Shown here piece by piece: positions 6,119 to 40,646 of a stretch of 64,000 nt of DNA. A program made the translations under genes and the position numbers. The notes under the pieces were generated by a model. That model made no database searches, was not told the DNA's origin, and saw only the letters and a program-made list of their open reading frames with translations. Each line of letters starts with the position of its first letter. Position 1 is the first letter of the stretch. Source of the DNA: an uncultured bacterium (GTDB lineage: Bacteria > Planctomycetota > JAJSAM01 > JAJVHW01); assembly GCA_937996235.1 (NCBI GenBank), contig CALKVK010000012.1, positions 145,139 through 209,138 on the forward strand, in the 5' to 3' direction.

Positions 6119-6139
6119 CCAAGACGGAGACGCCGAGAC

Positions 6140-6336: not shown

Positions 6337-6420
6337 CGGGTCCGCGTCCCCCGGGTCCCCGGGGTCTCCCGGGTTCGGATTCGCTGACGGCCGGCGCCGT
6401 ACGTACGGATCCTGCACACC

Positions 6421-7137: not shown

Positions 7138-7184
7138 CGCGCGACACCGCCGGGGCGCTGCGCTGACGCCGCGCGCGCCGACGC

Positions 7185-9803: not shown

Positions 9804-10056
9804 CGACGCAGCGAGCGCGGTCGGAGCGCCGTGGACGCGACGACCTGGGCGTCGCACGGACGCATCCCCGACGGCACGGCGGCGACGGCGTTGCACTCGA
9901 TCTCGGATCGCTTCGAGGGCTCCGTCGCGACATGGCGGCGCGCCGGCGCGGAACGGTCGCCGCGCAGCGGCGTCGCGGACTGCGCGCGCCGCGGACTCCG
10001 ACCGGCCCGGCCGACAGCGTACACTCCCCCACGGCGCCGGCGCGCCGCACGTCGCC

Positions 10057-10380: not shown

Positions 10381-10392
10381 GCGCCGCCCGGC

Positions 10393-11235: not shown

Positions 11236-11250
11236 CGTGCGCCGAGACCC

Positions 11251-12164: not shown

Positions 12165-12172
12165 CGCGATGT

Positions 12173-16209: not shown

Positions 16210-16376
16210 CGGACCTCCCCCGTCCCGGCTCCGCGGTCGGCCTCCTCTGCCGTCCCCGCGTCACCGACCCACGTGGGATCGAGATGCAGCGTCGTTGCAT
16301 CGGGAAGCGGCGGATGCGGACTTGAGGGAAATCCGGGTTTTAGCGCCGCGGCGGCGACGCGAGCAGCGGCGCACCG

Positions 16377-24900: not shown

Positions 24901-26964
24901 ATCTGCAGCGGTGCTGCCCGTCACAGCATCGACCACGCGCACGAGCGCGTCGTCGCACGCAGCCGCGATTCGTCCGCCGTCCGGGCTCCACGCGATGTCC
25001 TTGGCGCCCTCCATCGACGAGAGCCAGCGGACCTCGGCGCCTGTCCGACCGTCGCAAACGTGGACGGTCGCAGTGTCGGAGAGCGCGATCTGCCCGCCGT
25101 CCGGGCGGAAGCGTACTCGCCAAACGATCCTCCAGCGACCGGTCAGGGGACTGCTGGAGGCGCCCGTGCGCGTATCGAACAGCGCGTACGTCGCCAGACG
25201 GGATCCGTCCGGGCTCCACGCCGCATCCACCACAGGGAGTTCGTGCGGGCCGACATGCACGACCGCATCCGCGCCCGCCGCTGCGAAGATGGACGCGGCG
25301 CCGCGGACGGAGAGCGCCGCGATCCTCGTTCCGTCCGGACTCCAGCGAAGTCCGCGCAGCCGGTCCGATCCGGGCGTCGAGCGCCACGTGACTGCGTCCT
25401 CGAGGTGGGTCACGTCGAAGAGCGTGGCCGACGGGGACTCGCCGACGACCACGCGTCTGCCGTCCGCGGCCCAGGCGACGGCGACTGCGCCAGCCGTCTC
25501 CGCCGCGGTGCTGCGCGAGTCCAGCTCTCCCAGTTGCTCTCCCGTCACCGTGTCCCAAACCCGGGCCCCGGCATCCGACGCCGTCGCGATCCGTGTTCCG
25601 TCCGGGCTGAACGAACACGCGCTGACGACGCCGTCGGGGCTGGAGAGCTCGACGCTCGGTGCATCGCCGCTCACGGGCCAGACGCGTGCACCCTGATCCG
25701 CATACGCGACGAACCGGCTGCCATCTGCGCTCCACGACGCTCCGTGCAGCATGCCGCGCTGGATCTCGACCTCCGCCACGGTCACCGGCGCCGGGCCCTC
25801 CACGTCCCACACGCGCACCGTGCCGCCCTCGGACGCGACGAGCAGCCGGCGCGTGCCGGCGTGCCACGCGATCGCGCGGATCGGGAGCGGATGCGCCTGC
25901 AGCGCAGCGAACTCCGGCTGTTCCTGCGACGCGCTCCAGAGCCGCACGCTGCCGTCCTCGCAGCCCGTCGCCACGCGGCCGCCCGACAGCCACGACACGG
26001 CGGTGACCGGGGACGCGCACTCGAGGACGCTCGCGGTCGTCCCGTCCGCAGCGCTCCAGACACGGGCCGTGCCGTCGTCGGAGCCGCTGACGACGTGTGT
26101 CCCCGCCGCGTTCCACTCCGCCGCACGCACACGTCCCGTGTGCTCTGCGTACCCGACCACGTTCCGACCCGACTCGACGTCCCACACGCGCGCCGTCCCG
26201 TCCTCGGACGCCGTCAGCACGCGCGTGCCGTCGGGACTCCACGCGGCCTGCGTCAGCCGCTTCGAGTGGCCGGCGAGGACCGCATCGCAGCCGCCGTCGA
26301 GGTCCCAGAGACGAGCCGTGCCGTCGTCCGAACCGGTCAACAGGTGCTGCCCCTGCGGCGAGAACGAGACGAACGTGACCGCGGACTCGTGGCCGAGGAG
26401 CACGGGCGGCGACCAGCGCGAGCGGGTCCGCTCCACGTCCACGACCTGGAAGTCCGCCGACGACGTCGCCGGCGGCGGCTCGACTCCGACCGATCGAACG
26501 ACCTGCTGCGGCGGTCCCGGCTCCGGCTCGACGACGGGGTCGGACTGCGGCGGCGTGGGCCGGAACACGTCGAGCGCCCAGAGCGCTGCGACGCCAAGGG
26601 CGAGCACGACGAGCACCGCGAGCGCGACGCGCACCGTGCGCGATCCCGGGGCGGGCGTCCGCGGCGGCGCGCGTCGCGCGGGCCCCCTGCCACGGTCCGC
26701 GGTCGGTGCGACCGCGGGTGCGCCGCCGCGCCGCAGGCGCTCGCGCAGGTCGCGCTGCTCGTGCGGCGAGCGCGCGATCAGCGGCGCGAGCCAGTCGGCG
26801 ACGTCGTCCGGCGTCTCCCCCGCGGCGCCGCGTGCGACGAGCGCGAGGAACGCCTCCTGCACGACCAGGTGCTCCTCGACGCCGACGCCCCAGCCCTCGC
26901 GCCGCAGCTCGCGCAGGAGCGCGTGCAGCGCGGCGAGGCGCTCGGAGTCGGCGGGACCGCTCAC
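21970..26964 (-). CDS. Giant WD40-repeat / multipass membrane protein (~1664 aa). N-terminal helical region, one TM, at least 12 WD40 blades, a long middle region, and a C-terminal polytopic membrane domain with an acidic tail.
   Basis: GTG at 26964 overlaps the MoxR stop (GTGA). Canonical WD40 units (GHSKRLTQAAWSPDGTRVLTASEDGTARVWDVESG and similar, repeated). C-terminal hydrophobic helices. Ends ...DDLEDDMEHGEALPA at 21970. Confidence 0.8.
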   Translation of the reverse strand: MSGPADSERLAALHALLRELRREGWGVGVEEHLVVQEAFLALVARGAAGETPDDVADWLAPLIARSPHEQRDLRERLRRGGAPAVAPTADRGRGPARRAPPRTPAPGSRTVRVALAVLVVLALGVAALWALDVFRPTPPQSDPVVEPEPGPPQQVVRSVGVEPPPATSSADFQVVDVERTRSRWSPPVLLGHESAVTFVSFSPQGQHLLTGSDDGTARLWDLDGGCDAVLAGHSKRLTQAAWSPDGTRVLTASEDGTARVWDVESGRNVVGYAEHTGRVRAAEWNAAGTHVVSGSDDGTARVWSAADGTTASVLECASPVTAVSWLSGGRVATGCEDGSVRLWSASQEQPEFAALQAHPLPIRAIAWHAGTRRLLVASEGGTVRVWDVEGPAPVTVAEVEIQRGMLHGASWSADGSRFVAYADQGARVWPVSGDAPSVELSSPDGVVSACSFSPDGTRIATASDAGARVWDTVTGEQLGELDSRSTAAETAGAVAVAWAADGRRVVVGESPSATLFDVTHLEDAVTWRSTPGSDRLRGLRWSPDGTRIAALSVRGAASIFAAAGADAVVHVGPHELPVVDAAWSPDGSRLATYALFDTRTGASSSPLTGRWRIVWRVRFRPDGGQIALSDTATVHVCDGRTGAEVRWLSSMEGAKDIAWSPDGGRIAAACDDALVRVVDAVTGSTAADLPTGGSPAHAVAWSPSGDWIAAVAEDGTLRTFDAGTGSQARAWSGPRGDLATIAFSPDSVSLLVTRTDDVARIYDVTNGAVVALRGHDGWVTGGDWSPDGTRIVTASADMTARVWDARTGALERVLLGHTGAVTDARFSPDGAFIATSSLDGTLRVWRVGAPAPSPLPFVAALAGVFLVGVVVRRGIARAYVRRGVVADDARPAFLTVPQHTRGSAVAPTLRADIARLRTHADVVTGDLDVERSVERTVAAGGLPTPVLRSRPQTPEYVALVDRRSAADAQADHVAAVLDRLESEGVHVERFEFSRDPRVVRRRGGERAERLDDLVGRLRDRRLLVFAEASTFRDPRGGAAPWLAGLDAWAQRSAVVPAARDEWSHEERAVLADGLAVAALETPARAAAPGDLAAFDAHRGAGGRAAFPPTLRAGAERWLASGSPPEHEVARVLAELRAYLGPQTYAWLCACAVYPQVHHGLTQRLGDLVFAHTDGSDAWTSADLTRLVRLPWMRAGVFPDWLRRHLTEALPEPLAREIRASFLAWLVPASASDPDALEVAVEERPWLRRLAEARRRSATADDPDADALRDTVFLGFADDGLGVRVRRSVAALLRRAPRAASADAQRRPERTWWLAPPCTFGVAWALGWGLAQLGVGDVVMPVVAVYALGCGASAARSDLRGRWWLFASELLLLHVGALLGHHGGSGAVLDAARAATWDDWRALLVVEVLVLVVVLARTAACARRHADAVAPGRLERALSALPVDRVVSALLADERPASERAAAARDAPRYAPPVWAAAHLVPLGWLALLAWRLDVLAPAASPGVLRTAVGGAFLAAAGAALLVHVRNERRGALRPVDVAPRRLVVVAVACAGTWLGLRALAAATAWMADVARWAFLVWIGLAVLGGAIGFVMSRRRRAQEAAAAAGATEAETTGSDALDVDVELDWAETAEPAVEAGSPAEAQQAEHDMEDDLEDDMEHGEALPA

Positions 26965-27956
26965 GCGCCCCCGCGCCCCGCCTTCCACGTCGCGAAGATG
27001 CGACGCGCCGCCGCGAGATCCTCCTGGCCCTTCACGAGCGTTCCGAGGTCGCCGTCGGCCGACGCGGCGAGCGGGTTCGCGACGCCTTCCCCGGCGGAGC
27101 GCCGCAGCGCGGCGAGCCAGTCGATGAGCTCGGACGTCGCCGGCGGCTTGCGCAGGGGCGGCCGCGCGTCGCGCAGCGCACGGAAGAGCGCGAGCGCGTC
27201 CTTCACGAAGGCGCTGCCGGGCGCCGCCCAGGAGCCGAGGCGGCTCACGAGGATCTCGCCGAGGCGCTCCTCGTCGGGGAACTCGATGTGGTGGTAGACG
27301 CAGCGGCGCAGGAACGCGTCCGGCAGGTTGCGCTCGGAGTTGCTCGTCACGATGACGATCGGGCGCAGCGCGGGGTCCGCGGCGATCGCCGCGATGCCGA
27401 GCTCCGCCACGCGGAACTCCATCCGCTCGATCTCGGCGAGCAGGTCGTTCGGGAAGTCGCGCGGCGCCTTGTCGACCTCGTCGATCAGCACGACGCTGCG
27501 CCGCGGACCGTCGTGTGCGAACTCCGACGGCAGCCACGTCGCGACCTCGCCCGACTCGCGCGACAGCAGCACCGCGCGGCCGAGCGCCTCGTAGCGCAGG
27601 AAGCGCAGCCCGTCGGCGAGCGAGCTCCCGCCCGCGTCGCGCGCGTGGAAGCGGCCGAGCGCGTCGTACGTGTAGAAGAGGTGCCGCGCCTCGCTCGTCG
27701 ACTTCGTGTCGAAGCGCAGCGGCGCGCCGAGCCGCAGCTCCCACGCCACGCTGTAGGCGAGCTGCGTCTTGCCGGTGCCCGGTTCGCCGGTGAGCAGCAG
27801 CGGGCGGCCGAGCAGGATCGCGAGGTCCACGGCGCGGCGCAGCCGCGCGTCCACGCGGTAGCCGGCGGGGTCCTCCGCACGCGCGCGATCGACGGACGGC
27901 AGGTCGACGGCCGGCGCCTCGCGACGCTCGCCGCTCCCGCGGTAGATCATGTCCAT
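26961..27956 (-). CDS. MoxR-like AAA+ ATPase (AAA_5 family, 331 aa).
   Basis: Walker A LLLTGEPGTGKT; Walker B VVLIDEVDKA; sensor and arginine-finger region IVIVTSNSERNLPDAFLRRC. Length is typical of MoxR. Confidence 0.9.
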   Translation of the reverse strand: MDMIYRGSGERREAPAVDLPSVDRARAEDPAGYRVDARLRRAVDLAILLGRPLLLTGEPGTGKTQLAYSVAWELRLGAPLRFDTKSTSEARHLFYTYDALGRFHARDAGGSSLADGLRFLRYEALGRAVLLSRESGEVATWLPSEFAHDGPRRSVVLIDEVDKAPRDFPNDLLAEIERMEFRVAELGIAAIAADPALRPIVIVTSNSERNLPDAFLRRCVYHHIEFPDEERLGEILVSRLGSWAAPGSAFVKDALALFRALRDARPPLRKPPATSELIDWLAALRRSAGEGVANPLAASADGDLGTLVKGQEDLAAARRIFATWKAGRGGA

Positions 27957-29263: not shown

Positions 29264-30166
29264 TCAGAGTCCGAGTCTGTCGCGCAGCCGGGCGACGACC
29301 GCCGGCTGTGCGAGGTACTGCGCGATGCCGTGGCGCCAGGCGCCGGAGTTCGAGACGCGCACGTCCGCGACCGTCTCCTCGCCGTCGGCGAGGTAGTCGT
29401 TCGCGAGCACGGTGTCGAAGCCGCACACGGGATCGAGCCGGTCGTAGACGTTCGTCCACGCGCCGAGTGCGAGCTTCGCGCTCGGGTACGCGGTGTCGTA
29501 CTCCCACGCGTCGCCGAAGCCGTCCTGCACCTCGGACAGGCCGAGCGGGCTGCCGATCGTGAACAGCGCCGCGACGCCGGGCGTGTCGGCCACGTGCCGC
29601 AGGCAGTCGTACGCGATCACGGTGCCCATGCTGTGCGAGACGACGACGTGCGGCCCGGCCGCCGGGGGGACCGCGCGCAGAGCGGCGACGAAGCGCTGCC
29701 GGATCTCGCGCCGGACGCGGTACGTGACGCCGGGGCGCGGCCGCGACTCGGCGTCGTAGAGGTAGTGGTGGCAGTCGCGCAGGAGCCGCCGCATGAGGAT
29801 TTTCTCGAGGAAGTGCGGCAGCGGGACCGCGCGCTCGGACGCCGCGGCGAACGTCGCCCCGCCCTCGCGGATCGCCTCCTCCGCGAGCTCCTCGGTGCGG
29901 CGGCGGAGCGCGGCGACGAACGCGCGCTCGACGACGTCCGCACCGACTGCGAGCAGCTCGTCCTCCTCCGGCGCCGCGCCGCGCTGCGCCGGGTCCTCGG
30001 CCTCGGGCCGCGCGTAGAGCACGTCGGCCCAGTACACCATCGAGCTCGTCACGCCGCGCGCCGACAGGTCGAGCCCGCCCTGGCGCAGCGCCGCGAGCCA
30101 CTCCGCGAGGAGCACGTCCTGCGGCGGCTTGTTCAGGAGTCCGTGGACGAACGTCACGTGGGGCAT
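29264..30166 (-). CDS. Alpha/beta-hydrolase fold protein (lipase/esterase-like, 300 aa).
   Basis: Nucleophile elbow VVVSHSMGTVIAYD (GxSxG-type). Conserved downstream Asp/His candidates. Confidence 0.8.
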   Translation of the reverse strand: MPHVTFVHGLLNKPPQDVLLAEWLAALRQGGLDLSARGVTSSMVYWADVLYARPEAEDPAQRGAAPEEDELLAVGADVVERAFVAALRRRTEELAEEAIREGGATFAAASERAVPLPHFLEKILMRRLLRDCHHYLYDAESRPRPGVTYRVRREIRQRFVAALRAVPPAAGPHVVVSHSMGTVIAYDCLRHVADTPGVAALFTIGSPLGLSEVQDGFGDAWEYDTAYPSAKLALGAWTNVYDRLDPVCGFDTVLANDYLADGEETVADVRVSNSGAWRHGIAQYLAQPAVVARLRDRLGL

Positions 30167-30197: not shown

Positions 30198-33100
30198 TCA
30201 CGCGCGTCCCTCCACCGTGGACAGTGCGGCCGCCAGCGCGGCGAGGTCGGCGGCGTCGCGGCGTCCCGCGGCGGTCTCGGGAGCGAGTTCGCCGAGGGTC
30301 GCGAGCTGCGTCAGGACGGAGTCGCGCTCGCGTGGCGAGGCGCCGCGCGCCGCCGCGCCGAAGCACTCGCGTATCCGCGCGACGCGCGCTCCGAGTGCGT
30401 GCCCGGCGAGCGCGTGCAGGATCTCCATGTCGACGACGGCGAGCTGCCACCACACGTCACGGCGCGCCTCCGGCACCTGCGCGTGGTCCTGACGCGCCGC
30501 GTCGAGGACCGCGCGGACGACGCGCGCCGAGCGCCGGAGGGCCCACAGCAGTGCGGCCTGGTTGCACGCGGGGTAGTAGCCGGCGCCGGGCCGCCCGCGG
30601 GCGGCGAGCTCGACACCGCGCGCGTACTCGCGCTCGGCCTGGGCGAGCAGACGACGACGCTCGCGTCCGACGGCGTGCGTCGCCCGGCGCTTGAACGCGC
30701 CGCCCACGAGCGATGCGCGCTCGCACGTCGGCGGCGCGATCGCGTCGAGCGCGCGGCAGCGCTCGATCGCCGTCTCCCAGAGCTGGCGCGCGCGCGCGAG
30801 CCGTGCGGCGTCCGCGCCGCCGCCCGCGATGCGATGCGCGAGCCGGTCCTCGAAGTTCGCGAGCTGCTCGATGTCCTCGACGCGCAGCGCGGAGCCGTCG
30901 CTCGCGAGCGCCGCGCGCAGATCCGCGACGGCCTCCTCGAAGTCGCCGAGCTCGCCGCGCAGGCGCCCGCGCGCCACGAGCACGCGCGCGCTGAGCCACT
31001 CCGGACGCAGCGCGGCGTCCACCTGCGCGAGACGGCTGCGCACACGCTCCGCCGAATCCGCGCTCGGCCGGCGCAGGTTGTGGAGACCGATGCGCAGCAC
31101 CGCGAGCTCCTCCGCCACCTCGCGCTCCGACACGTAGCGCGGCACCTCGCCGCCGCGCCACGGCGCGGACGTCAGCCGGAAGTGCGGGTCGCCGTAGCAC
31201 TGGAACGCGCCCCACGTCGTGCTCCCGAGCTCGTGCGCGGAGCGGCGCGCCGCGCTCACGGCGTCGCCGAACGTCTCGCCGTCGAGCAGGCGTTCGTAGA
31301 ACGCGGTCGCGAACGCGCGCGCGGCGGCGTCGTCCACGGCCCACCCCGCGACGACCAGGCAGCGCACGCCGATGCGCATCAGCTCGACGGCGACGCTCGC
31401 GGCGAAGCGGCCGTGCTGCGGCTCGTCGGTCCGGCCCAGGTGGCAGCAGCTCAGGAACACGAGCGAGGGGCACGCGGGGAGCTGACGGATGACGTCGGCC
31501 GTCAGCCGCACGTCGTCGCCGATCACCACGCCGGTGCGCGCGGGGTCCGCGGCGTCGAAGGTGCCGTGCGCGGCGACGTGCACCACCACGTAGTCGTTCG
31601 CGTAGAGGCGCTGCAGCACCGCGGACGCGTCCTCGTCGATCGACGTCTCGACGACGTACCGGGCGCGGGTGAGCTGCTGCGAGACGCGCACGGCCTCGGC
31701 GCGCGCCCCCGGCAGGTCCGCGAACGCCGGCGCCTGCGGCGTGCCGACGACGAGCACCGCGCCGCCGCGCGCCGGCTCGACGACCTCGGCGGCGCTGCGA
31801 TCGCGGAACTGCCGCACGACGCCGAGCAGCGCCGGCGACGCGCCGTCGTCGCTGCGCCGGCGCATCAGCAGCTCCCACGGGTAGCGCGCGGTCAGCGGGT
31901 CCACGACGAGCACGAGCTCGCCGGCGTCCGCGATCTCCTCCTTGAAGGGACCGGGCACCAGCAGGTCGAACAGCGTGTGCGAGATGGAGTCGGGCGCGAT
32001 GCCGCTCGTCGTGCGCTCCGTCGCGCGCAGGAACGCATCCACGAGAGTGTGGATCGTGGGCTGCGTGATGACGGGCGCCCGCGCGCGATCGGTCACGTAG
32101 AGGTACTCGAGTCCCGTGGTGCGCGCGGCGTCGCCCGCGTCCTCCTCGCGCCGCGCGCTGACGTGCAGGCGATTCCACCAGCGGTCCGCCGCGGCCCCCG
32201 TGCGGCCGCCGGGACGGCCGTCGCGCCCGATCACGAGCGCGTCGTCCGCGTGCACGTCCGGGAGCCCGCCGCTCTGCCGCGCGCGCTCGCGCGCCGCGTC
32301 GACCAGCGCCCGTGCCGCCGCCACGGCCACGTCCTCGCTCAGCTCGACGAACTCGAGCCGCGCGATGCGCGCGCCGGCGTTCGGACCGTCCGGCTCCGCG
32401 AGCCGCGCGTTGACGCGCACGACCGCGTCGAGGATCGCCGCGATGGACTCGCGCACGTCGAGCGCCCGGCCGCCGCGCGTGCCGATCAGGAGCGACGACA
32501 GCGTGAGCTCGTGCGGCGTGCCGTCGCCGCGCGCGTCCGCGGCGCGGAGCGCCCACTCGAGGACGCCGGCGTGCACCGTGCGCCGCAGCCGCCGCGGCGT
32601 GAGGTCGCCGACGTCGCCGAGCCCCACCACGATCGCGCCCGGCGGACGGCCGGCAGCGCCGTCTTCCGCGGGCGGCGCGTCCACGACGAGCACGTCGCCG
32701 ATGCGCCCCGGGTACTGCCGCACGGCGAAGCGCCGCGCGAGCCGCCCGTCGAGACGCGAGTCGAGGTAGCGCTCGGCGCCGAACAGGCCGTCGCCCTCGT
32801 AGTGGCCCACGAGCACGGGACCGTGCGCGGCGTGCAGACTGCCGTGCACGACCTCCGCACGCAGCTGCGGCCCGACGACGGCCTCCTCGTCGCCGAGCAC
32901 GCGCGCTGCGAGCAGTCCCACGACGCCGTCCTCGGGCGGGAACGTGGACGCGGCCGCGACGATCGTCTCCGGCCGCACGGGAGGACGCGGCGGCACGCGC
33001 GCGGAGACTCCCGCCTCGAGCAGGTCGCGGATGCCCGCGACGAGATCCGCGGCGGACGGCAGCCGCTCGTGGCGCGCGGCCAGCCAGCGCGCCGTGGGGC

Positions 33101-35447
33101 GTTCCGCGAGCGTGGGATCCGCGAGGCACCAGCCGTCGCCCGCGTCGGGCTTGATCTCGGCGCGCAGCCGTGCGTCGGCGGCGCCGCGCTCGAACGACAC
33201 GACCGTGCGGTCGGCGGCGCCGAGCACGGTCAGCGCATCGAGCGCGAGCAGCGCCTCCGCGGCCTTGCGGCGACGCGCCCGTCCGGCGCGCAGGAACTCG
33301 CGCGACGGCGCCGCGTCGACCGCGCGCGCGCGCCACCACTCCGGCTGCCCGCAGGGCTCGGGCAACTGGTCGTGCACCGCGGGGCACTCCGCGAACACGC
33401 GCCGCAGAGCAGCGCGGCGTCCGCGTCCGTCGAGCAGGCAGAGCGACTCGAACAGCGCGCCCTCGCCGAGGGCGAGCGACAGCACGGCGCCCGAGCCGAC
33501 GGTCGGCGGTCCGAGCAGCACGACGCGGCGCAGGCGCGCGGGCCGCGGCACGCCGGCCAGCGCGAGCGCGACGGCGAGGGCGCCGTAGCCGTGCGCGATC
33601 ACGTGCACGTCGCACGCCGCGCACGCCGTCTCGATCCGCTCGCGCAGCACGGCGGCGACGACGTCGAGCGACTGCCGCCAGTCGTACGGCACCGGCTCGA
33701 CGAGCGCAAACCCCTCGAGCGCCCGCTCGAGCGCGATCCACTGTTCGGGGGCCGCGAGTCCCACCGCTCGGACCACGCCGACCGGCGCGGCGAGTCGCTC
33801 GAGACGGCCCGCGACGAGCGCGTCGCGGTCGGGCCAGAGCGGCCCGTCGTCGTCGGCCAGCGACGACCCGAGGAAGTCGGGCACGAGCAGGACCGCGCGC
33901 GAGGGCGCCGCCACGTCGGCGGCCTCGTCGCGCCGCCGCACGGGCACGAGCCGCTCGGGCGGCCCGCCGCGGAACGGCCGGAAGCCGCGCGGACGCAGGT
34001 CCGCGCCGTGCTGCGCGTCGAGTGCGGCATCGACGCTCTGGCGCGTGTCGCGTCCGCCGAAGTACGTGAAGTGGCTGACGGCCGGGCTCTGGTGGAACGC
34101 GGCCACGGCGCCGCCGCGCCCGCCGGTCGCGCCGTACATCGACGCCGTCTGCACGACGAGATCGTTCGCCTCGCCGAAGAACGCGTACGCGGCGAGCGCG
34201 CGCAGGCGGCGCCAGACGCCGTCGCCCTGCAGGTTGCCCGCCACGACGCGCAGCTCGTCGCCCGACGACGCGGGCGCGAGGTTCAGGTAGCGCGTGAGCG
34301 GCGAGCCGGGGAGCTGCGCCTCGATGCCCGGCACCTCCGCCGGCTCCGCGCGCCGGCGGACGATCTCGAGCAGCGTGCCGGTGATCGCGTCCACGACCTC
34401 CGGCACGGCCACGAGCGCGCCGACCAGGTCCACGAGCACGGAGAGGAATGCGTCGAGTCGCTCCGACGCGAGCGTCGTCCCGCTCGCGGGGCACGCGACG
34501 CGCACGAAGCGGCGGATCGCGATGCGCTTCTCGCGCAGCGCGCCCGCGAGCTGCACGAGCTGCTCGCGCTGCCGCGCGCGCACGTCCGCGTCTTCGCCCT
34601 GCGCGCGGAACCCCGCGAGCGCCGCGGCGCTCGGCTCGCCGCTCCGGCACAGCAGCTCGCCGACGAGTCCGCCGCGCGAGTGCGTCAGGAGGTCGAGCTG
34701 CACGCCCGGCGGCAGCCGCTCGACGGCGTGCAGCGCGTTGGCGGCGGGCGTGCGCGAGAGCGTGTGGTGCTCGAGCGCGAGCACGCGCCCGCGGTAGCGC
34801 TGCCACACGTGGCGCCAGCGCGCCGTCGCGACGGCCTGGCCCGACGACGCCTCGCGGCGGAAGAAGTCGCCGAAGCTCCCCTCGGTGCTCGACGCGGTGC
34901 CGTGGATCAGCAGCAGCACGGGCTCGTCGCCCGCGAGCGCCGCGGCGTCGTACGGCTCGAGCGAGCCGTCGCTCGCGACGGAGTAGAGGTCCTCCGCGTG
35001 CGGGAGCCGCGACTCGAGCGCAGCGACGGCCGCGGCGGTCCCGAGCTTCGCGATCTCCTCGTCGACGTCGATGCCGAGCAGCGACAGCGCGCGGATGCCG
35101 AGACCGAGGGCGTCGCGCGTCGCGCCCGGCAGCGGCAGCGCGGACGGCACGACGAAGGCCTCGGGCTCGCCCCGCTGCGACGTCGCGTCGCGCGCGCCCG
35201 CGGGCAGCCCGCCGAACAGCTCGGGCAGACGTGCGACCGACGTCCACAACACGCCGCCGCCGTCGAGTTCGAGTCGGACGAGTCCGTGCGCCTCGCCGGG
35301 CGACACCTGCACGGACTCCGCCCGCGCCCCCGCGCGGTCCGCGGCGAACTCGAAGCGACGCGCCGACGCGATCCGGTGTCGCGCACTCGGGGACGCCACG
35401 CCGTCGGCCCGCGTCTCCCGCGCAGGGATCGTCAGCGTCCGCGCCAT
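30198..35447 (-). CDS. Giant multidomain protein (1749 aa): N-terminal lipase-like alpha/beta-hydrolase domain(s), central CHAT (caspase-like) protease domain, C-terminal TPR-like repeats.
   Basis: Hydrolase region PVLLLIHGTASS...DLLTHSRGGLVGELL and a second degenerate one (VHVIAHGYGALAVALALAG). CHAT signature YVVVHVAAHGTF ... SLVFLSCCHLG. Helical repeats at the end. The overlapping plus-strand 1923-aa ORF is Arg-rich antisense. Confidence 0.85.
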   Translation of the reverse strand: MARTLTIPARETRADGVASPSARHRIASARRFEFAADRAGARAESVQVSPGEAHGLVRLELDGGGVLWTSVARLPELFGGLPAGARDATSQRGEPEAFVVPSALPLPGATRDALGLGIRALSLLGIDVDEEIAKLGTAAAVAALESRLPHAEDLYSVASDGSLEPYDAAALAGDEPVLLLIHGTASSTEGSFGDFFRREASSGQAVATARWRHVWQRYRGRVLALEHHTLSRTPAANALHAVERLPPGVQLDLLTHSRGGLVGELLCRSGEPSAAALAGFRAQGEDADVRARQREQLVQLAGALREKRIAIRRFVRVACPASGTTLASERLDAFLSVLVDLVGALVAVPEVVDAITGTLLEIVRRRAEPAEVPGIEAQLPGSPLTRYLNLAPASSGDELRVVAGNLQGDGVWRRLRALAAYAFFGEANDLVVQTASMYGATGGRGGAVAAFHQSPAVSHFTYFGGRDTRQSVDAALDAQHGADLRPRGFRPFRGGPPERLVPVRRRDEAADVAAPSRAVLLVPDFLGSSLADDDGPLWPDRDALVAGRLERLAAPVGVVRAVGLAAPEQWIALERALEGFALVEPVPYDWRQSLDVVAAVLRERIETACAACDVHVIAHGYGALAVALALAGVPRPARLRRVVLLGPPTVGSGAVLSLALGEGALFESLCLLDGRGRRAALRRVFAECPAVHDQLPEPCGQPEWWRARAVDAAPSREFLRAGRARRRKAAEALLALDALTVLGAADRTVVSFERGAADARLRAEIKPDAGDGWCLADPTLAERPTARWLAARHERLPSAADLVAGIRDLLEAGVSARVPPRPPVRPETIVAAASTFPPEDGVVGLLAARVLGDEEAVVGPQLRAEVVHGSLHAAHGPVLVGHYEGDGLFGAERYLDSRLDGRLARRFAVRQYPGRIGDVLVVDAPPAEDGAAGRPPGAIVVGLGDVGDLTPRRLRRTVHAGVLEWALRAADARGDGTPHELTLSSLLIGTRGGRALDVRESIAAILDAVVRVNARLAEPDGPNAGARIARLEFVELSEDVAVAAARALVDAARERARQSGGLPDVHADDALVIGRDGRPGGRTGAAADRWWNRLHVSARREEDAGDAARTTGLEYLYVTDRARAPVITQPTIHTLVDAFLRATERTTSGIAPDSISHTLFDLLVPGPFKEEIADAGELVLVVDPLTARYPWELLMRRRSDDGASPALLGVVRQFRDRSAAEVVEPARGGAVLVVGTPQAPAFADLPGARAEAVRVSQQLTRARYVVETSIDEDASAVLQRLYANDYVVVHVAAHGTFDAADPARTGVVIGDDVRLTADVIRQLPACPSLVFLSCCHLGRTDEPQHGRFAASVAVELMRIGVRCLVVAGWAVDDAAARAFATAFYERLLDGETFGDAVSAARRSAHELGSTTWGAFQCYGDPHFRLTSAPWRGGEVPRYVSEREVAEELAVLRIGLHNLRRPSADSAERVRSRLAQVDAALRPEWLSARVLVARGRLRGELGDFEEAVADLRAALASDGSALRVEDIEQLANFEDRLAHRIAGGGADAARLARARQLWETAIERCRALDAIAPPTCERASLVGGAFKRRATHAVGRERRRLLAQAEREYARGVELAARGRPGAGYYPACNQAALLWALRRSARVVRAVLDAARQDHAQVPEARRDVWWQLAVVDMEILHALAGHALGARVARIRECFGAAARGASPRERDSVLTQLATLGELAPETAAGRRDAADLAALAAALSTVEGRA

Positions 35448-35568: not shown

Positions 35569-36471
35569 TCAGCGCGCGCGGAAGGTGTCGTTGGCCCCCG
35601 GGACGCGCGCGAGATCGAGTTCGAGTCGCACCGCCGCAGCGCCCTCGCCGACGACGGCGCCCAGCGCATATGCGCCGTAGACGAGGACCTCGCAGCGCGC
35701 CGTCGTGCGAGTCGTTGCGCTCGGTGGACCGTCGGCCCTGGACAGCGTCTCCGGGTCGTGGCAGAAGCGGATGGCACTGGGGAGCGGTCGATCGGGGTCG
35801 ACCGTCCGCACGCACGCGTGGACTCGGAACCAGTGCTGGGAGCCGACCTCGCGGCCGCGCGCGGGGTCGGGAGGCGGCAGCGGCTCCACACGCGCGCTGA
35901 GCAGGTACGGATGGACGAACGCGCGCCGGCCGAACTGCCCGCGATTGCGGTCCTCCACGCAGGTGCGTCCCGTGACCGTCAGCGCATCGAGCAGGATGAA
36001 GCACTCGAGGTGCGTGCGCAGTTCCGCCGCCGACGCGTAGCGCAGCACGCGGAAGCCCTGCACGTCGAAGTGGACGTCGTCGCCCGCGCGCACGACGTGG
36101 ACGACCGGGCGGCCGATCGCGTGCGCGAAGCCGAGCTCGTAGTAGCAGTTCGGCCGCGCGTGCGTCAGGTCGGCGATGACGAAGTCGGCGCCGCGGATCG
36201 CGTCGCGGATCTCGTCGATCATCTGTCCGCCGGACGGCAGCTCGTCCATGCGGTACGAGCGGAACCCGAACCGCCTCGCCGCGGGCGCGATCGCCTCGTG
36301 ACGCACCGCGCGCAGCTCCGGCGTGTCGGCGAACGACGAGATCACGAAGCAGTAGGGCTCGTCGGGGTCGAACGGCACGGGTGCCCCGGCGCAGGGCTCC
36401 GGCGCCGCGGCATCGGCGACGCCGCTCGCCTCCGGCTGCGACGCAGCCGGCTTCCGTCTCGCCGTCCCCAT
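35569..36471 (-). CDS. TIR-like / nucleoside 2-deoxyribosyltransferase-like Rossmannoid domain protein (~300 aa).
   Basis: ATG at 36471 (MGTARRK...). Motifs CFVISSFADT ... ADFVIADLTHARPNCYYELGFAHAIGRPVV match the D..NPNV.YELGYA..LGKPV signature of NDT/TIR-like domains. A 121-bp gap separates it from the giant CHAT gene downstream. Confidence 0.7.
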   Translation of the reverse strand: MGTARRKPAASQPEASGVADAAAPEPCAGAPVPFDPDEPYCFVISSFADTPELRAVRHEAIAPAARRFGFRSYRMDELPSGGQMIDEIRDAIRGADFVIADLTHARPNCYYELGFAHAIGRPVVHVVRAGDDVHFDVQGFRVLRYASAAELRTHLECFILLDALTVTGRTCVEDRNRGQFGRRAFVHPYLLSARVEPLPPPDPARGREVGSQHWFRVHACVRTVDPDRPLPSAIRFCHDPETLSRADGPPSATTRTTARCEVLVYGAYALGAVVGEGAAAVRLELDLARVPGANDTFRAR

Positions 36472-36641
36472 GCGCACCTCCCGACACACGGCGTGCCCTG
36501 CGCGGTCCGGGCGACTCCACTCGCCGGGCCCGCTCGTCGCAGCGAGGATGCCCGGACGCACCGCTCCGCGTCCACACTCGAACCGCGCCGCCGTGCGGCG
36601 AGGCTCCGCAGATCGCCGCCGCCCGGGCTACCCTCCCGCGC

Positions 36642-39600
36642 GTGACCGGGACGCGCCTCGGACCGTACCTCCTCGACCGCGAGCTCGGCGCGGGCGGGAT
36701 GGGGCGCGTCTACGCCGCCACCGTCGCCGCGCCTACCGACTGCGGCGTCCACGTCGGCGGGCGCGTCGCCGTGAAGCTCGTGCACGCGCACCTGCTCGAG
36801 TCGCCGGACGCGCTCGCGCGCTTCGAGCGCGAGGTCGCGATCGGCACGCGCGTGCGGCACGAGAACGTGGTGCGTACGTACGCGGGCGGCGCGCTCGACG
36901 GCGCGTGGGCGCTGGTGATGGAGTACGTCGAGGGCCAGACCCTCGCGGACCTCCTGAACGAGCTCGGTCCGCTCCCGGAGGAGCTCTGCCGCCACGTCGC
37001 GCGCGAGATGTGCAAGGGCCTCGCGGCGATCCACGCGACCGGCGCGATCCACCGCGACGTGAAGCCGGAGAACGTGCTCATCACGCCCGAGCACGTCGTC
37101 AAGCTGATGGACCTCGGCGTCGCGCGCTCGACCGACGACGCGCTGCGCCTCTCGCAGACGGGCGCGTTCGTCGGCTCGCTGCACTACGCCGCGCCGGAGC
37201 AGTTCGAGGACGGCGGACGCGGTCTCGACGCGCGCGTGGACCTGCACGCGCTCGGTCTCGTGCTCTACGAGCTCGCGACCGGCAGCGCGCCGTACCTCGC
37301 GGACGACATCCCGCAGACCGTGCGGCGCGTGCTGTCCGAGGACCCGCGGCGGCTCGGCGAGATCAACCCGCAGTGCAGCGCGTTCTTCGAGGAGGTCGTC
37401 CACACGCTCCTGCGCAAGCGCCGCGACGAGCGCTTCGCGTCGGCCGACGAGCTGCTCGCGGTGCTCGAGTCGGGCGAGGAGTCGCCGTGGTGGACGGAGC
37501 GTGCGCGCGCGCTCCAGCTCGCGACGCGGCGGCCGCTCCGGCGCATCCGCGTGCCGCGCGAGACGGCCGTCTACGGCCGCGACAGGGAGCTCGCGAAGCT
37601 GCGGGCGCTCTACGAGCTGGCGCGCGCAGGCGACGGGCAGGTGGTGCTCGTCGAGGGCGAGGCGGGCATCGGCAAGTCGCGCGTCGTGGACGAGTTCGTG
37701 GCGCGCCTGCAGCAGGAGGGCGAGGACGTCGACTTCCTGTTCGGGTCGTACCAGCCGGGCGGCGCGTCGGCTGCGGCGGGCGCGTTCTCGTCGGCGTTCC
37801 GCGAGCACTTCGGGCCCGACGGCTCCGCCGCGTACCTGCGCCAGACGCCGCTGCTCGTGCCTGCGTTCGACGCCGTGCTGCGCGGCGACGCGCCGCCGCC
37901 CGACGCGCAGCCGCTCTCCGCGGACTCGCTCGCGACGTGCTTCGTGCAGGCCACACGCGCCGTCGCCGCGGAGCGCCCCGCGATCGTCCTCGTGGACGAC
38001 CTCCACTTCGCGTCCGACGAGTCGCACACGCTCTTCGCGGCGCTCGCGATGGCGCTGCCGGGCCACCGCGTGCTGCTGATCGGCACGGTGCGGCCCGGCG
38101 CCGAGGGCGCGTGGCGCGGCACGCTCGCGCGGCTCGAGCACATGTCGCACATCGCGCTCGAGCGCCTCTTCCCGAAGGACCTCGTGCGCCTGCTCGAGGA
38201 CTCGTTCCACTCCTCGCAGCTCGCGCACGAGCTCGGCGTGCGCATCGCCCTCAAGTCCGACGGCAACCCCTACTTCGTGTTCGAGATCGTGCGCGGCCTG
38301 CGCGAGGGGCAGTTCATCACGCGCCGCGACGACGGCACGTGGGCGACGACGCGCGTCATCGACGACATCGAGATCCCGTCGTCGATCCTCGACCTCGTGC
38401 GCGCACGCGTCTCCACACTTGCACCGGCCGAGCGCGACCTGCTCGACGTCGCCGCGTGCTGCGGCTTCGAGTTCGACCCGCTGCTCGTCGCCGAGGTGCT
38501 CGGCATCGGGCGCATCCCGGTTCTCAAGCAGCTCGCGCAGATCGAGCGCGCGCACAGGCTCGTGCGCGCGAGCGGCCGGCGCTTCGTGTTCGACCACCAC
38601 CAGGTGCAGGAGGCGCTCTACGCGTCGCTGCCCGAGCTGCTCCGCGAGGAGTACCACGGCGCGCTCGGCGACGCGCTCGCGGCGCGCTCGGGCGCGGCCG
38701 AAGCCGACCCGCAGACGCTCGACGGTGCGCTCGCCGTGGACCTCGCCGAGCACTACCTGAAGGGCCTGCGCGGCACCGACGCGCTGCGCTACCTCGACCG
38801 CGCGCAGCAGGCGCTGCGCACCGCCTACTCGCTCGCGCGGTCGGTCGCGCTCGACGAGGCGGCGCTCGCGATCGACGGACTCCTGCGCGACGAGGCGCGC
38901 GTGAACGTGCTCGTGCGGCTCGCCTCGTGCCTCGACGATCTCGGGCGCAGCGAGCGCTGGCTCGCCGTGCTCGGCGAAGCCGTCGAGATCGCCGACCGGC
39001 TGGGCGAGGCGGGCGTGCGCGCCCGCGCGCATCGCGCACTCGGCCACGGCCACGAGCGCCTGCGCCGCAACGACGACGCGCTGCGCGAGCTGGAGCTCGG
39101 GCTCGTGCTCGCACGCGAGGCCGGCGACCGCGCCACGGAGTCGCAGGCGCAGAACTGTCGCGCGGTCGTCTACGCGACGAGCGGCCGGCTGCCCGAGGCC
39201 GAAGAGGCGTTCCGTGCGCTCGTCGCGCTGCGCGAGGAGAGCGGGGACCAGCGCGCGCTCTCCGCCGCCCTCGGCAACCTCGGCATCGCGCTCATGCACC
39301 TCGGCCGCGTCCCGGAATCGATCGCGTTCCAGGAGCGCTCGCTCGACGCCGCGCGACGCGCCGGCAACGCGCGCGCCGAGGCCGCGGCGCTCGGCAACCT
39401 CGCCCACGCGCTCCGCGCCGCGGGGCGGCGCTCCGAGGCGATCCCGGCGACCGAGCGCAGTCTCGAGCTGTGCCGCGAGATCGGCTACCGCCGCGGCGAG
39501 GCGCTCGCGCACTCGAGCCTCGCGATCGCGTTCCGCAGCACCGACCGCCTCGTGGAGGCGCGGCAGGCGCGCGAGGAGGCGGCGCGGCTCGCCCGCGAGT

Positions 39601-40259: not shown

Positions 40260-40646
40260 CGCGCAGCAGCGGGCGGCGACGTGAGTCGGCGTCCGCCACG
40301 ACCTGTAGGGGCGACACCGTTCGGACGCCCCCCTCGCCCGAGCCCGGCCAGGCTCGCCCCTGCGGCGGCGGACGCTGCGATGGTCCTGCGCGTCCCGACG
40401 CCTCTGGCGGAGGATCCTGGGGACCTGCGCGCCGGGCGCGCCGCACACCGTGCGGCGGCGGACGCGCGACGGACGGTGGACGGCGGGTGCGCTGCACCCC
40501 GCGAGGACGCGCGACGAGGGAACGAGCCGACGCGAGGGGCGCGCGACGTCGCCCCCACGGACACTCCGCGGCCGCTTCGCAACCCCCGCACGCTGCATCT
40601 CGAGACTGATCCGGGTCCCCAGGCCAGTTCACGACGGAGCCAGGCA

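Follow-up and report, generated by a model that had tools for sequence, protein, structure and literature searches.

A widespread CHAT protease and TPR-S chassis with fused alpha/beta-hydrolase modules: candidate effector of NAD-derived signaling

Among the closest known systems is type VIII Thoeris, whose effector ThsI joins a CMP-hydrolase to a TPR and is triggered by TIR-made cADPR (bioRxiv 10.64898/2025.12.03.692087). The same preprint proposes the ThsI TPR as the sensor and identifies it with the TPR that Burroughs & Aravind had predicted; its binding of a nucleotide is a prediction there, worded as ‘presumably’ (bioRxiv 10.64898/2025.12.03.692087). Type IV Thoeris comprises a TIR protein and a caspase-like protease, and SAVED-CHAT activates a second caspase (10.1101/2024.10.24.620036). 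In a further group of conflict systems, a caspase-superfamily domain is always accompanied by a neighboring alpha/beta-hydrolase gene (Kaur, Burroughs, Iyer & Aravind 2020, PMC7159879), and proteins of the DUF4062-iSTAND type are predicted to be an invader-sensing, signal-generating component (Kaur et al. 2020/2021). Here, we compare with these systems a locus from a 64-kb stretch of DNA (the window) that encodes a 1749-aa protein with protease, hydrolase and TPR-type domains.

The 1749-aa ORF is a genuine coding sequence. Its GC contents at codon positions 1, 2 and 3 (0.82, 0.55 and 0.95) carry the coding signature of a ~75% GC genome, a signature that a codon-position GC check found absent from the long ORFs overlapping the gene in other frames, and an identical 1749-aa protein (P0001) is held in a public protein collection. 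We resolved the protein into six parts (Table 1). Pfam searches returned DUF7379, CHAT and TPR-S, all above their cut-offs, an NCBIfam search of the protein returned nothing, and two AlphaFold models were both good (pLDDT 84.5 and 80.6). Residue conservation was scored across 118 full-length homologs. Because Ser257, Asp429, His459, His1294, Cys1334 and Cys1335 were invariant in all 118, the motifs quoted in an initial annotation of this gene are not chance occurrences. The N-terminal region, modeled as beta strands (pLDDT ~70–80 in AlphaFold model B), had no Pfam match at E ≤ 1 and is poorly conserved, with a tblastn match in only 13 of 82 loci; its conserved residues are G16, R38 and R111.

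Table 1 Features of the 1749-aa protein and of the surrounding gene cluster, in window coordinates.
Feature	Residues or length	Position (nt)	Strand	Basis or type
Whole 1749-aa gene	1749 aa	30198..35447	(-)	ATG start; N-terminal region + DUF7379 + LCAT-like + M17_N-like macro-fold + CHAT + TPR-S
N-terminal region, beta-rich	1-168	34944..35447	(-)	AlphaFold beta strands
Hydrolase module 1 (DUF7379, PF24096)	170-500	33948..34940	(-)	alpha/beta-hydrolase
Hydrolase module 2 (LCAT/LPLA2-like)	512-830	32958..33914	(-)	alpha/beta-hydrolase
Macro-fold domain, Peptidase_M17_N type	862-1150	31998..32864	(-)	Fold and family-specific polar residues
CHAT caspase-like protease	1152-1430	31158..31994	(-)	Pfam, fold, His/Cys dyad
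TPR-S (‘sensor’ TPR) domain, PF20308	1440-1749	30201..31130	(-)	Pfam, hhalign
DrHyd-pYEATS gene	300 aa in database call	35569..36471, ORF to 36561	(-)	Pfam, PADLOC, homologs
Stand-alone alpha/beta-hydrolase	300 aa	29264..30166	(-)	Coding, GC3 0.96
DUF4062 (TIR-like) + iSTAND protein	416 aa	27970..29220	(-)	Pfam
AAA+ ATPase, AAA/AAA_5 type	331 aa	26961..27956	(-)	Pfam
Membrane WD40 protein, last cluster gene	~1672 aa	21970..26988	(-)	Pfam WD40 1.5e-81

The initial annotation had read a lipase-type nucleophile elbow, LLTHSRGG, near the N terminus, and our data bear this out: the motif occupies residues 253–260 (nt 34668–34691) of module 1, which matched DUF7379 with 96–102 bits against a Pfam cut-off of 33 and adopts an alpha/beta-hydrolase fold. 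Its top fold matches were Tle4 and lipases, the closest being the type VI secretion system (T6SS) phospholipase Tle4. The elbow itself, H-S257-R-G-G (Ser257 codon at nt 34677–34679), was present as HSRGG in 62 of 66 GTDB loci, and both the triad Ser257/Asp429/His459 and the HG oxyanion motif H182-G183 were invariant (118/118 homologs). Module 1 also contains a helical insertion with a single hydrophobic helix (residues 331–349). The second hydrolase had been described as degenerate from IAHGYGAL, which lacks Ser, and rightly so: within this motif (residues 617–624, nt 33576–33599), the elbow A-H-G620-Y-G has Gly at the nucleophile position (nt 33588–33590), and the nucleophilic Ser of the G/A-H-S-x-G elbow of the LCAT/LPLA2 type (PF02450) is absent. 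Asp771 and His793 are kept. Across homologs, position 620 is Ser in 95 and Gly in 23 of 118, with Ser in about 80–90% of relatives. Lacking the nucleophile, module 2 of this protein therefore probably has a scaffold or binding role only. For the substrate of the hydrolases, fold neighbors are our sole guide and suggest lipid.

The CHAT domain scored 118.2 bits in Pfam (PF12770; cut-off 24), with the full model covered by residues 1156–1420. Its proposed His/Cys dyad in HVAAHG (residues 1290–1295) and LSCCHLG (residues 1332–1338) is present, although the site itself, His1294 (nt 31566–31568) and Cys1335 (nt 31443–31445), lies slightly C-terminal of the interval 1250–1300 originally given. His1294-Gly1295 and Cys1335 are invariant (118/118) and align with the GHG and the ‘NAC’ Cys of SAVED-CHAT 8tl0, and the domain fold resembles the solved caspase-like structures of separase, Csx29 and SAVED-CHAT. 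Pfam, fold and SAVED-CHAT alignment agree in placing the HG...C motif inside a CHAT fold; as judged from these signatures, the domain is a true member of the CHAT/caspase fold, complete with the His/Cys dyad, and a predicted peptidase.

Between module 2 and the protease, fold comparison revealed a macro fold that the initial annotation did not contain, preceded by a conserved linker with P837 at a conservation of 0.98. The canonical Macro Pfam model (PF01661) matched the macro-like domains of none of 35 members, and Peptidase_M17_N matched 22 of the 35 (best 7.8e-9), including the window copy at 23.7 bits against a cut-off of 23.4; the domain profile also matched the LAP N-domain 3jru_B. Gly-rich loops are accompanied by the invariant, family-specific polar residues H882, D886, E892, Y912, N1013 and W1090. 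The Peptidase_M17_N clade is not known to bind ADP-ribose. The closing domain had been called TPR, which is correct for its general type and misses its identity as TPR-S, a domain tied to TIR/DrHyd signaling. Pfam TPR-S matched residues 1502–1634 with 31.7–35.6 bits (cut-off 27.6), the isolated C-terminal domain matched it at 1.5e-8, and 26 of 26 family C termini did likewise. Conserved residues are W1484, E1527, N1531, R1535, E1576, R1577, K1586, Y1608, Y1625, N1629 and W1666, and an hhalign alignment with the corresponding domain of a Trypsin-TPR-S protein (E=4e-4) extended over these same conserved positions. We infer that TPR-S is a receptor for an NAD-derived nucleotide.

The gene lies in a tight minus-strand cluster of six, in the order DrHyd-pYEATS, 1749-aa gene, stand-alone hydrolase, DUF4062-iSTAND, AAA+ and membrane WD40 protein, with intergenic gaps of −28 to 121 nt and no terminator-like site found on the minus strand along the cluster. 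The upstream DrHyd-pYEATS and downstream iSTAND and AAA+ genes were absent from the initial annotation. The DrHyd-pYEATS gene, 121 nt upstream on the same strand, carries the catalytic ‘YELG’ Glu in its DrHyd (Nuc_deoxyrib_tr/TIR-like) domain. It matched the PADLOC TIR effector (7.6e-11) and, in Pfam, Nuc_deoxyrib_tr (4e-5) and TIR_2 (0.005); in the PDB, Rcl/DNPH1 and CMP hydrolase were weakly matched over the Glu motif. Since its homologs carry PF05014 and PF20305, the C terminus appears by homology to be of the pYEATS type. The encoded protein may generate an NAD-derived signal or be a NADase. No canonical TIR_2-type gene was found in the 64-kb window with a locally built HMM, the TIR-class domains there being this DrHyd domain and DUF4062, and a C14 gene is absent from the locus.

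Thirty-one nt downstream of the 1749-aa gene, the stand-alone hydrolase had been noted as a paralog with a VSHSMG motif. It is a coding 300-aa ORF with that motif (residues 176–181, nt 29624–29641), but no paralogy is detectable, as neither BLAST nor profile comparison gave significant similarity to modules 1 and 2. At least 1162 proteins make up its own family, in which HG, H-S179-x-G, Asp and His279 are invariant and which adjoins CHAT-TPR-S or Trypsin-TPR-S genes in loci L083-L086. The stand-alone hydrolase belongs to this separate family and is a conserved partner of TPR-S-bearing proteases. The 416-aa protein that follows (Pfam DUF4062 2e-25, iSTAND 7e-7) is an iSTAND component with an N-terminal TIR/DrHyd-type domain, as described for ternary systems. 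The AAA+ protein matched Pfam AAA (2.6e-9) and AAA_5 (8.5e-8) and not AAA_3; NCBIfam MadB_ATPase matched at 3e-24, under its cut-off, and PDB matches were limited to weak ones to midasin and spastin. The WD40 gene, whose start overlaps the stop of the AAA+ gene, encodes a protein that has a TM helix on either side of two WD40 propellers, then a 430-aa region without matches and, at the C terminus, four or more TM helices.

Beyond the window, more than 120 full-length homologs were present among the matches listed, of at least 814. The conserved core is a three-domain chassis of M17_N-like macro-fold, CHAT and C-terminal TPR-S, which 580 or more species genomes carry and whose sequences form about 1,300 clusters at 50% identity; a search with the macro-like middle domain returned 1331 representative clusters. 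This chassis carries zero, one or two hydrolase modules and, in some members, a TIR fused to it. Pfam confirmed chassis-only (~900–1000 aa), one-hydrolase and two-hydrolase forms, and a subgroup of ~2130 aa, 12 of the 118 homologs aligned, has a C-terminal TIR_2. The suggestion that the domain combination is unusual thus fell away: the gene belongs to a large, widespread family, and the pairing of hydrolase and caspase had already been published (PMC7159879). DUF7379 itself is not mentioned in the literature we found, the supplements of the 2025 Thoeris survey contain no CHAT, TPR-S or DUF7379 entry, and no experimental record of phage protection by family members was found in the literature.

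Neighborhoods of the family include TIR, DrHyd, pYEATS, iSTAND, SLATT, C14, nSTAND and toxin–antitoxin genes. TIR_2 or DrHyd-type genes lay within a few kb, or were fused, in 24 of 82 loci and 16 of 44 well-flanked ones; some family members adjoin DrHyd+TPR-S proteins resembling ThsI. The closest homolog among the matches listed sits in a locus of big gene, hydrolase, 234-aa gene and pYEATS-TIR, and one chassis-only member is translationally coupled to a SLATT gene. Active-looking C14 caspases with conserved SGHG and DSCHSG motifs were directly adjacent in ~22/82 loci. A linked signal generator is not universal, since 18 of the 44 well-flanked loci (about 40%) lack TIR and C14 genes alike in their vicinity and the genes in Thiothrix and Geobacter appear to stand alone.

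From domain identities, folds, catalytic conservation, family modularity and neighborhoods, we infer a defense role and an order of events. We consider it somewhat better than an even chance (about 0.55) that the 1749-aa protein is a cytoplasmic multi-enzyme conflict-system effector, acting against phage or in abortive infection and switched on by an NAD-derived signal. Upon infection, a co-encoded enzyme of the TIR or DrHyd class would make an NAD-derived nucleotide, the candidates in the window being the upstream DrHyd-pYEATS and/or the downstream DUF4062-iSTAND protein. TPR-S would bind this nucleotide, perhaps with help from the macro-like domain, and binding would release or assemble the CHAT protease, which may cut cellular proteins, its own polypeptide or, at other loci, a partner C14 caspase. 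Intact module 1 (Ser257/Asp429/His459) and the separate 300-aa hydrolase would attack membrane phospholipid, and the infected cell would die or go dormant. More tentatively, the chassis could be an uncharacterized receptor-protease for a TIR- or DrHyd-made NAD-derived messenger and define a new Thoeris-like type, a caspase-cascade-plus-lipase death pathway. One signal would then fire a caspase-like initiator protease; this would license not only the phospholipase modules and the partner hydrolase but, in many genomes, also a C14 caspase as executioner. Ligand binding or regulation might fall to the LCAT-like module without a nucleophile and to the M17_N-type macro fold, in loose resemblance to plant TIR signaling, where lipase-like proteins of the EDS1 family are catalytically dispensable.

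The initial annotation had proposed a membrane-directed, protease-activated effector. This is possible, although the evidence suggests, in the first place, activation by a signal sensed through TPR-S. In its strict form, CHAT would cut its own polypeptide or the neighboring hydrolase to release or unmask a membrane-destroying lipase, with the protease as an internal activator and lipid hydrolysis as the sole killer, a scheme that we consider less likely than not. It draws on the invariant module 1 triad with the phospholipase toxin Tle4 as nearest structure, on the hydrophobic helix, which could serve as an interfacial lid, on the conserved linker between module 2 and the macro-like domain and on the fusion of hydrolases to the protease in most members. 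However, chassis-only members are common and complete, so the protease has a function even where no lipase is fused to it; other outputs are indicated by TIR and SLATT genes and by the partner C14 caspases, and no cleavage site was identified. Self-activation fits within the NAD-signal reading as one of its steps rather than as a complete mechanism.

TPR sensors of Avs/STAND proteins bind their targets directly, and TPR domains are generic protein-binding scaffolds. TPR-S could likewise bind a phage protein or other macromolecule with no small messenger involved, leaving the enzymatic domains, TIR/DrHyd NADases included, as parallel effectors; the DrHyd and DUF4062 domains of the window could then be NADase effectors rather than signal makers. 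Many loci are indeed solitary single genes without TIR, the ~2130-aa forms fuse TIR as do TIR-SAVED and TIR-STING effectors that use it as executioner, and one family neighbor, a TIR-patatin protein, is effector-like. We nonetheless regard direct sensing as rather unlikely. The conserved charged and aromatic TPR-S residues listed above from E1527 to W1666 recur in the TPR-S of unrelated effector types, and such a compact set is more in keeping with a conserved small ligand than with phage proteins, which diversify; ThsI, which carries such a TPR, responds to cADPR, and SLATT occurs with a chassis-only member.

Still more doubtful is an accessory role, with the caspase/hydrolase pair as the proteolytic arm of an iSTAND-AAA+ (MoxR-vWA-type) system activating the WD40 membrane effector. 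The DUF4062-iSTAND, AAA+ and large TM/beta-propeller genes do follow the hydrolase on the same strand at gaps of 43, 13 and −28 nt, and such systems use caspase plus alpha/beta-hydrolase in signaling and beta-propellers in effector positions (Kaur et al., PMC7159879). Against this, neither a vWA domain nor any other Pfam match (E ≤ 1) was detected in the non-WD40 parts of the ~1672-aa protein, and the AAA+ protein is not demonstrably MoxR. Because homologs of the AAA+ or WD40 gene occurred in 0/82 related loci (DUF4062 in only 2/82), this link is local to the source genome and not a family trait. A role outside defense, as a housekeeping enzyme or a secreted lipase/protease that might, for instance, acquire nutrients or carry out developmental proteolysis, is very improbable given that neither a signal peptide nor a TM segment was detected in the 1749-aa protein, that its neighbors are conflict-system domains and that the family shows the patchy spread across phyla and the tandem duplication typical of defense genes.

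If the NAD-signal mechanism is true, a very large and abundant effector class would join TIR/NAD-messenger immunity, in which a single sensor governs both a protease and a lipase and, in some cases, an NADase or second caspase as well. It would also offer a first handle on the ligand of TPR-S and bear on the pre-eukaryotic wiring of caspase cascades with TIR signaling. The chassis-plus-cargo modularity permits chassis-only, one-lipase and two-lipase forms to be compared. The 1749-aa gene is an ordinary family member, its local interest lying in the DrHyd-pYEATS and iSTAND/AAA+ surroundings and in the lost second nucleophile.

Among known systems, Borvo shares the CHAT domain, BovA and the 1749-aa protein both being CHAT-domain defense candidates. 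The PADLOC BovA profile gave a weak partial match (residues 1253–1404, E=1.9e-6, positions 512–666 of 711); we rejected Borvo membership, as the profile was not matched over its full length and the remaining architecture is unrelated. Identity to Tle4 and to lysosomal phospholipase A2/LCAT is only 15–18%, and those enzymes are secreted, whereas the 1749-aa protein is intracellular, fused to a protease and has Gly for the Ser nucleophile in module 2. No sequence similarity to Csx29 (TPR-CHAT) or separase was detectable; in Craspase, Csx29 has an N-terminal TPR that docks on Cas7-11, whereas TPR-S is C-terminal here and a macro-fold precedes CHAT.

As in the systems of Kaur et al., CHAT and hydrolase in the window adjoin DUF4062-iSTAND and an AAA+ ATPase. 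The locus differs in that hydrolases are also fused to the protease and, from iSTAND ternary systems, in that a vWA component was not detected; across the family, hydrolases pair with TPR-S-bearing proteases and not with VMAP or iSTAND proteins.

Type IV Thoeris (ThsE, N7-cADPR), SAVED-CHAT and, by prediction, the 1749-aa protein are caspase-superfamily proteases with a nucleotide-messenger switch. The CHAT fold and dyad match those of SAVED-CHAT 8tl0, and the C14 caspases adjacent in ~22/82 family loci mirror the CHAT-to-PCaspase cascade of type III CRISPR. The sensors differ, TPR-S and an M17_N-like macro fold standing in place of SAVED or the ThsE C-terminal domain, and the fused lipase modules have no counterpart in either system. 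With ThsI, compared here by its description, the protein shares a C-terminal TPR of the kind that Burroughs & Aravind tied to TIR signaling, and a DrHyd gene lies directly upstream. Type VIII Thoeris differs in its canonical ThsB-type TIR_2, which was not found in the window, where the signal and defense roles are predicted, and in its cargo, a nucleotide hydrolase in ThsI and protease plus phospholipase-like modules here. Purely at the level of architecture, the 1749-aa protein displays the build of a Thoeris-type effector, with sensing and toxic domains.

The GC content of the window (~75%) produces long ORFs in several frames over the same DNA. The coding signature is confined to the minus-strand frame of the target, with GC fractions of 0.82, 0.55 and 0.95 at codon positions 1, 2 and 3, and the public protein collection contains an identical 1749-aa protein, P0001. 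The initial annotation had read a lipase-like hydrolase, CHAT protease and TPR polypeptide from this ORF, and the observation is real: its motifs lie at or close to the places assigned to them, with LLTHSRGG at residues 253-260, IAHGYGAL at 617-624, HVAAHG at 1290-1295 and LSCCHLG at 1332-1338, and the neighboring 300-aa ORF is also coding and carries VSHSMG. Searching the whole protein against the PDB by sequence and scanning it with NCBIfam yielded no match, and PADLOC returned only a weak and partial match to BovA.

The target very probably serves as an effector in a conflict system, with a CHAT/TPR-S chassis. Pfam CHAT covers residues 1156-1420 (6e-34) and TPR-S residues 1502-1634, both above the curated cut-offs. 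Among 118 full-length homologs aligned for residue conservation, His1294-Gly1295 and Cys1334-Cys1335 are invariant, and alignment of the protease-domain profile to the solved SAVED-CHAT protease assigns the catalytic positions to His1294 and Cys1335. The active site features a double cysteine, within an ‘N-C-C’ motif in 118/118 homologs, of which only the second aligns with the SAVED-CHAT catalytic Cys. TPR-S occurs in the C-terminal 310 residues of 26/26 family members, and a number of its charged and aromatic positions are conserved. By sequence, the middle domain belongs with Peptidase_M17_N; this Pfam model gives a borderline match in the target (880-961) and matches the middle domains of 22/35 members, and a profile search finds the LAP N-domain (3jru_B). 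Canonical Macro membership was rejected, with 0/35 members matching. Family-specific invariant polar residues (H882, D886, E892, Y912, N1013 and W1090-W1091-x-R1093) and Gly-rich loops (G942-L-G944..G947 and ‘LLIGTGxGG’ at 986-993) may form a ligand pocket; H882, D886, E892 and Y912 lie inside the region aligned to the LAP N-domain but are absent from the latter.

Two hydrolase modules precede the chassis. In module 1, identified as DUF7379 at residues 178-273 (4.6e-29 for the isolated module, above the curated cut-off), the oxyanion HG (182-183), the elbow H-S257-R-G-G, Asp429 and His459 are invariant across the 118 homologs. In the LCAT-like module 2, Asp771 is invariant and His793 near-invariant, and the nucleophile position 620 is occupied by Ser in 95 and by Gly in 23 homologs; the Gly forms include the target and the proteins most closely related to it. 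Species-representative genomes supplied an independent sample of 66 full-length genes, of which 58 have Ser and six Gly. Two AlphaFold models based on a 62-sequence alignment reached good pLDDT values of 80.6 for residues 1-850 and 84.5 for residues 841-1440. The first 168 residues are β-rich and weakly conserved and match no Pfam family at E<=1. No membrane-spanning segments or signal peptide-like features were found in the target, and its sole strongly hydrophobic stretch (331-349) is located inside the helical insertion of module 1. The linker leading from module 2 into the macro-like domain includes a conserved segment with the family consensus LFPDxxDLxAAALG and P837 conserved at 98%, which could serve as a cleavage site or pseudosubstrate.

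A word-indexed search with the target identified at least 814 homologs, named ‘DUF7379 domain-containing protein’ or ‘CHAT domain-containing protein’ by NCBI, in Acidobacteriota, many Proteobacteria, Bacteroidota, Chloroflexota, Nitrospirota, Planctomycetota, Verrucomicrobiota and other hosts; >120 of those listed approach full length (1600-2160 aa) and share one Pfam set. The family was found in at least 580 genomes in a scan of one genome per species, and exhaustive phmmer analysis with the macro-like domain alone gave 1331 clusters at 50% identity. Cluster lengths and Pfam scans revealed a modular organization: the chassis, here macro-like domain, CHAT and TPR-S, occurs alone in complete proteins of ~900-1000 aa, with DUF7379 only (~1430-1520 aa), with the LCAT-like module only (~1240-1360 aa), with both hydrolase modules, the commonest form and that of the target, or with both modules and a C-terminal TIR_2 (~2130 aa; 12/118 aligned homologs). 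Rather than the unusual combination initially proposed, the fusion is, on the basis of these counts and forms, widespread, evolutionarily stable and no oddity, and the target is an ordinary family member.

Within the window, six minus-strand genes including the target are arranged head to tail with gaps of 121, 31, 43, 13 and -28 nt. A promoter and terminator scan, otherwise uninformative in this GC-rich DNA, detected no minus-strand terminator-like sites between them. In the N-terminal DrHyd/TIR-class domain of the first gene product, the region around the catalytic YELG Glu aligns weakly with Rcl/DNPH1 and CMP hydrolase, and pYEATS is present in homologs of this protein. In the sixth, 430 residues after the second TM helix lack any Pfam match; a vWA assignment was rejected, as no Pfam match was obtained at E<=1. 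A kinase gene diverges from the cluster, with its predicted 5' end overlapping the longest ORF of the DrHyd gene. The second CHAT protein in the window has a classical TPR-CHAT layout with an architecture unrelated to that of the target. An ordinary chromosomal context, as opposed to a mobile island, is indicated by the glutamate dehydrogenase gene and by NorB, a di-haem peroxidase and a sigma-54 activator encoded at other places in the window. The whole window has a uniform GC content.

Coordinates of window genes, target features and observations at related loci (L-numbers).
Feature	Location	Strand	Length (aa)	Remarks
Cluster gene 1, DrHyd/TIR-class protein	35569..36471	-	300	PADLOC TIR 7.6e-11; Pfam Nuc_deoxyrib_tr 4e-5
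Cluster gene 2, target	30198..35447	-	1749	
Cluster gene 3, stand-alone alpha/beta-hydrolase	29264..30166	-	300	
Cluster gene 4, DUF4062 (TIR-like) + iSTAND protein		-		Pfam
Cluster gene 5, AAA+ ATPase		-		
Cluster gene 6	21970..26988	-	~1672	TM helix, two WD40 propellers, second TM helix, at least four C-terminal TM helices
Second CHAT protein	13261..16260	-	999	TPR_12 N-terminal to CHAT (1.1e-52)
Ser/Thr protein kinase + AAA_16 (STAND-like) + TPR	36381..40259	+	1292	
NAD-specific glutamate dehydrogenase	40281..45482	+	1733	Bac_GDH_CD 2e-261
Target, module 2/macro-like linker	32850..32960	-		Residues ~830-866
Target, macro-like domain	31998..32864	-		Residues 862-1150
Target, CHAT double cysteine	31443..31448	-		Residues 1334-1335
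Tandem family genes	L042, 1075..15211			1937-7432 and 9587-15211
Chassis-only member	L087, 7531..11375; L088, 4045..7889		1018	Overlaps stop of SLATT_1/DUF4231 gene
Peptidase_M15_3-like ORF	L031, L041, L043, L045, L050, L064; ~12680-15100 each		~230	Rhodocyclales-type; overlaps big-gene stop
Gene between partner hydrolase and pYEATS-TIR gene	L083, 6478..7182		234	No Pfam match
C14 gene upstream of big gene	L014, L015, L018-L020, L026, L031, L033, L034, L041, L045, L050, L064, L071, others			

To compare gene neighborhoods, we searched 82 loci of relatives with the five window neighbors using tblastn. Homologs of the AAA+ and WD40 proteins were present in 0/82 loci each, those of DUF4062 and the stand-alone hydrolase in 2/82 each and those of the DrHyd-type (TIR-like) gene in 7-8/82. 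With the neighbors this rare, the window arrangement is local, and a conserved six-gene operon was rejected. Some relatives look solitary. Unbiased clustering of flanking ORFs, combined with local HMMs seeded from Pfam-confirmed sequences, recovered TIR_2 or DrHyd-type genes in 24 loci, often within 0-3 kb or fused; partners include a TIR-patatin protein and ~700-aa DrHyd+TPR-S proteins. In ~22 of the 82 loci, a stand-alone Peptidase_C14 caspase (~270-290 aa) is directly adjacent, mostly 0-160 bp upstream on the same strand, and 21 aligned partners share conserved SGHG and DSCHSG motifs at the active site. This gene order suggests a possible CHAT-to-C14 protease cascade. At 44 loci, the full gene is flanked on either side by >=2.5 kb; a TIR-class gene is present at 16 of these, a C14 gene at 15 and at least one of the two at 26.

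Individual loci show further arrangements. Azotobacter chroococcum DSM 2286 (L042) carries two family genes in tandem, with a C14 caspase before the first copy and a TIR_2 gene between the two. Translational coupling to a SLATT gene is seen for a chassis-only member at two loci, where the gene for a 94-aa RyR-domain protein follows and an nSTAND1 + FGE-sulfatase gene lies in divergent orientation. In the Rhodocyclales-type loci, a conserved ~520-aa ORF without Pfam matches follows the Peptidase_M15_3-like ORF.

The stand-alone hydrolase had been considered a paralogue of the target's modules, a relationship that neither BLASTP (E>0.5) nor family HMMs of modules 1 and 2 (E>0.02) recovered at significance. 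Its own family, in which the HG/Ser/Asp/His set is intact, numbers at least 1162 proteins with a length of ~310 aa. In 4/4 loci examined, a family gene adjoins a TPR-S-bearing protease in a TIR-rich neighborhood, the protease being Trypsin_2+TPR-S in three of them. It is through the TPR-S/protease module, and not by paralogy, that this adjacency ties the hydrolase functionally to the target. The fourth locus (L083) carries the target's closest homolog among the matches listed; there the big protein comes first, followed by the hydrolase, a 234-aa gene and pYEATS-TIR.

Domain identities, active sites, modularity and associations follow directly from the analysis, and we infer a ligand, an order of events, substrates and a role in defense. 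The best-supported reading, which combines the findings with published TIR-signaling systems, has a probability of roughly 55% overall. TIR/DrHyd-class enzymes would produce an NAD-derived messenger, which TPR-S, perhaps with the macro-like domain, would perceive. The CHAT protease would then be switched on, activating at the same time the phospholipase modules carried as cargo and the partner hydrolase, as well as a C14 executioner where other genomes encode one. The abstract of Burroughs & Aravind reportedly predicts a TPR scaffold recognizing NAD-derived signals and is said to cover prokaryotic YEATS domains as well.

A serious alternative is direct sensing, in which TPR-S would bind a phage macromolecule and TIR would serve as a further effector; this fits both the many solitary loci and the TIR fusions. 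The self-activating lipase proposed in the initial annotation is compatible with messenger-triggered CHAT activation as a sub-step but, given how common chassis-only proteins are, cannot account for the mechanism on its own. The target may possibly act as the proteolytic arm of a local iSTAND/AAA+ system in this genome, although the family as a whole does not share this association. The neighboring genes make a housekeeping role unlikely.

The family is already catalogued through Pfam DUF7379, CHAT and TPR-S, and literature searches for DUF7379 and for CHAT + hydrolase + TIR + TPR in an anti-phage context found no experimental work on the architecture. The present analysis adds the M17_N-type macro-fold domain, the modular combination of chassis and cargo, the frequent pairing with C14 and SLATT genes and the identity of the neighboring hydrolase family. 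The target's family represents an abundant, testable and unstudied effector class that would not surprise specialists.

The window cluster is similar to the iSTAND ‘ternary’ conflict systems that Kaur et al. described in 2020 (PMC7159879); according to these authors, a caspase-superfamily domain in such a system never occurs without an alpha/beta-hydrolase gene next to it. Membership is incomplete, however, with no vWA and an at most putative MoxR assignment for the AAA+ protein. For messenger-triggered activation, the closest parallels are Thoeris systems. Canonical cADPR made by TIR activates the type VIII effector ThsI, which combines a CMP-hydrolase with a TPR proposed as the sensor, and SLATT effectors of type VII respond to the same cADPR (bioRxiv 10.64898/2025.12.03.692087). 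According to that preprint, Burroughs & Aravind (J Bacteriol 2020) had earlier predicted a part in TIR signaling for the ThsI-type TPR. Another preprint examined a DrHyd-like + TPR protein of the same predicted class, which has a TIR as its partner. Type IV Thoeris couples TIR to a caspase-like protease, and one type III-B CRISPR system uses a SAVED-CHAT protease to activate a second caspase (10.1101/2024.10.24.620036). The component associations were predicted computationally in 2020, and the analogous Thoeris IV, Thoeris VIII and SAVED-CHAT have since been demonstrated.
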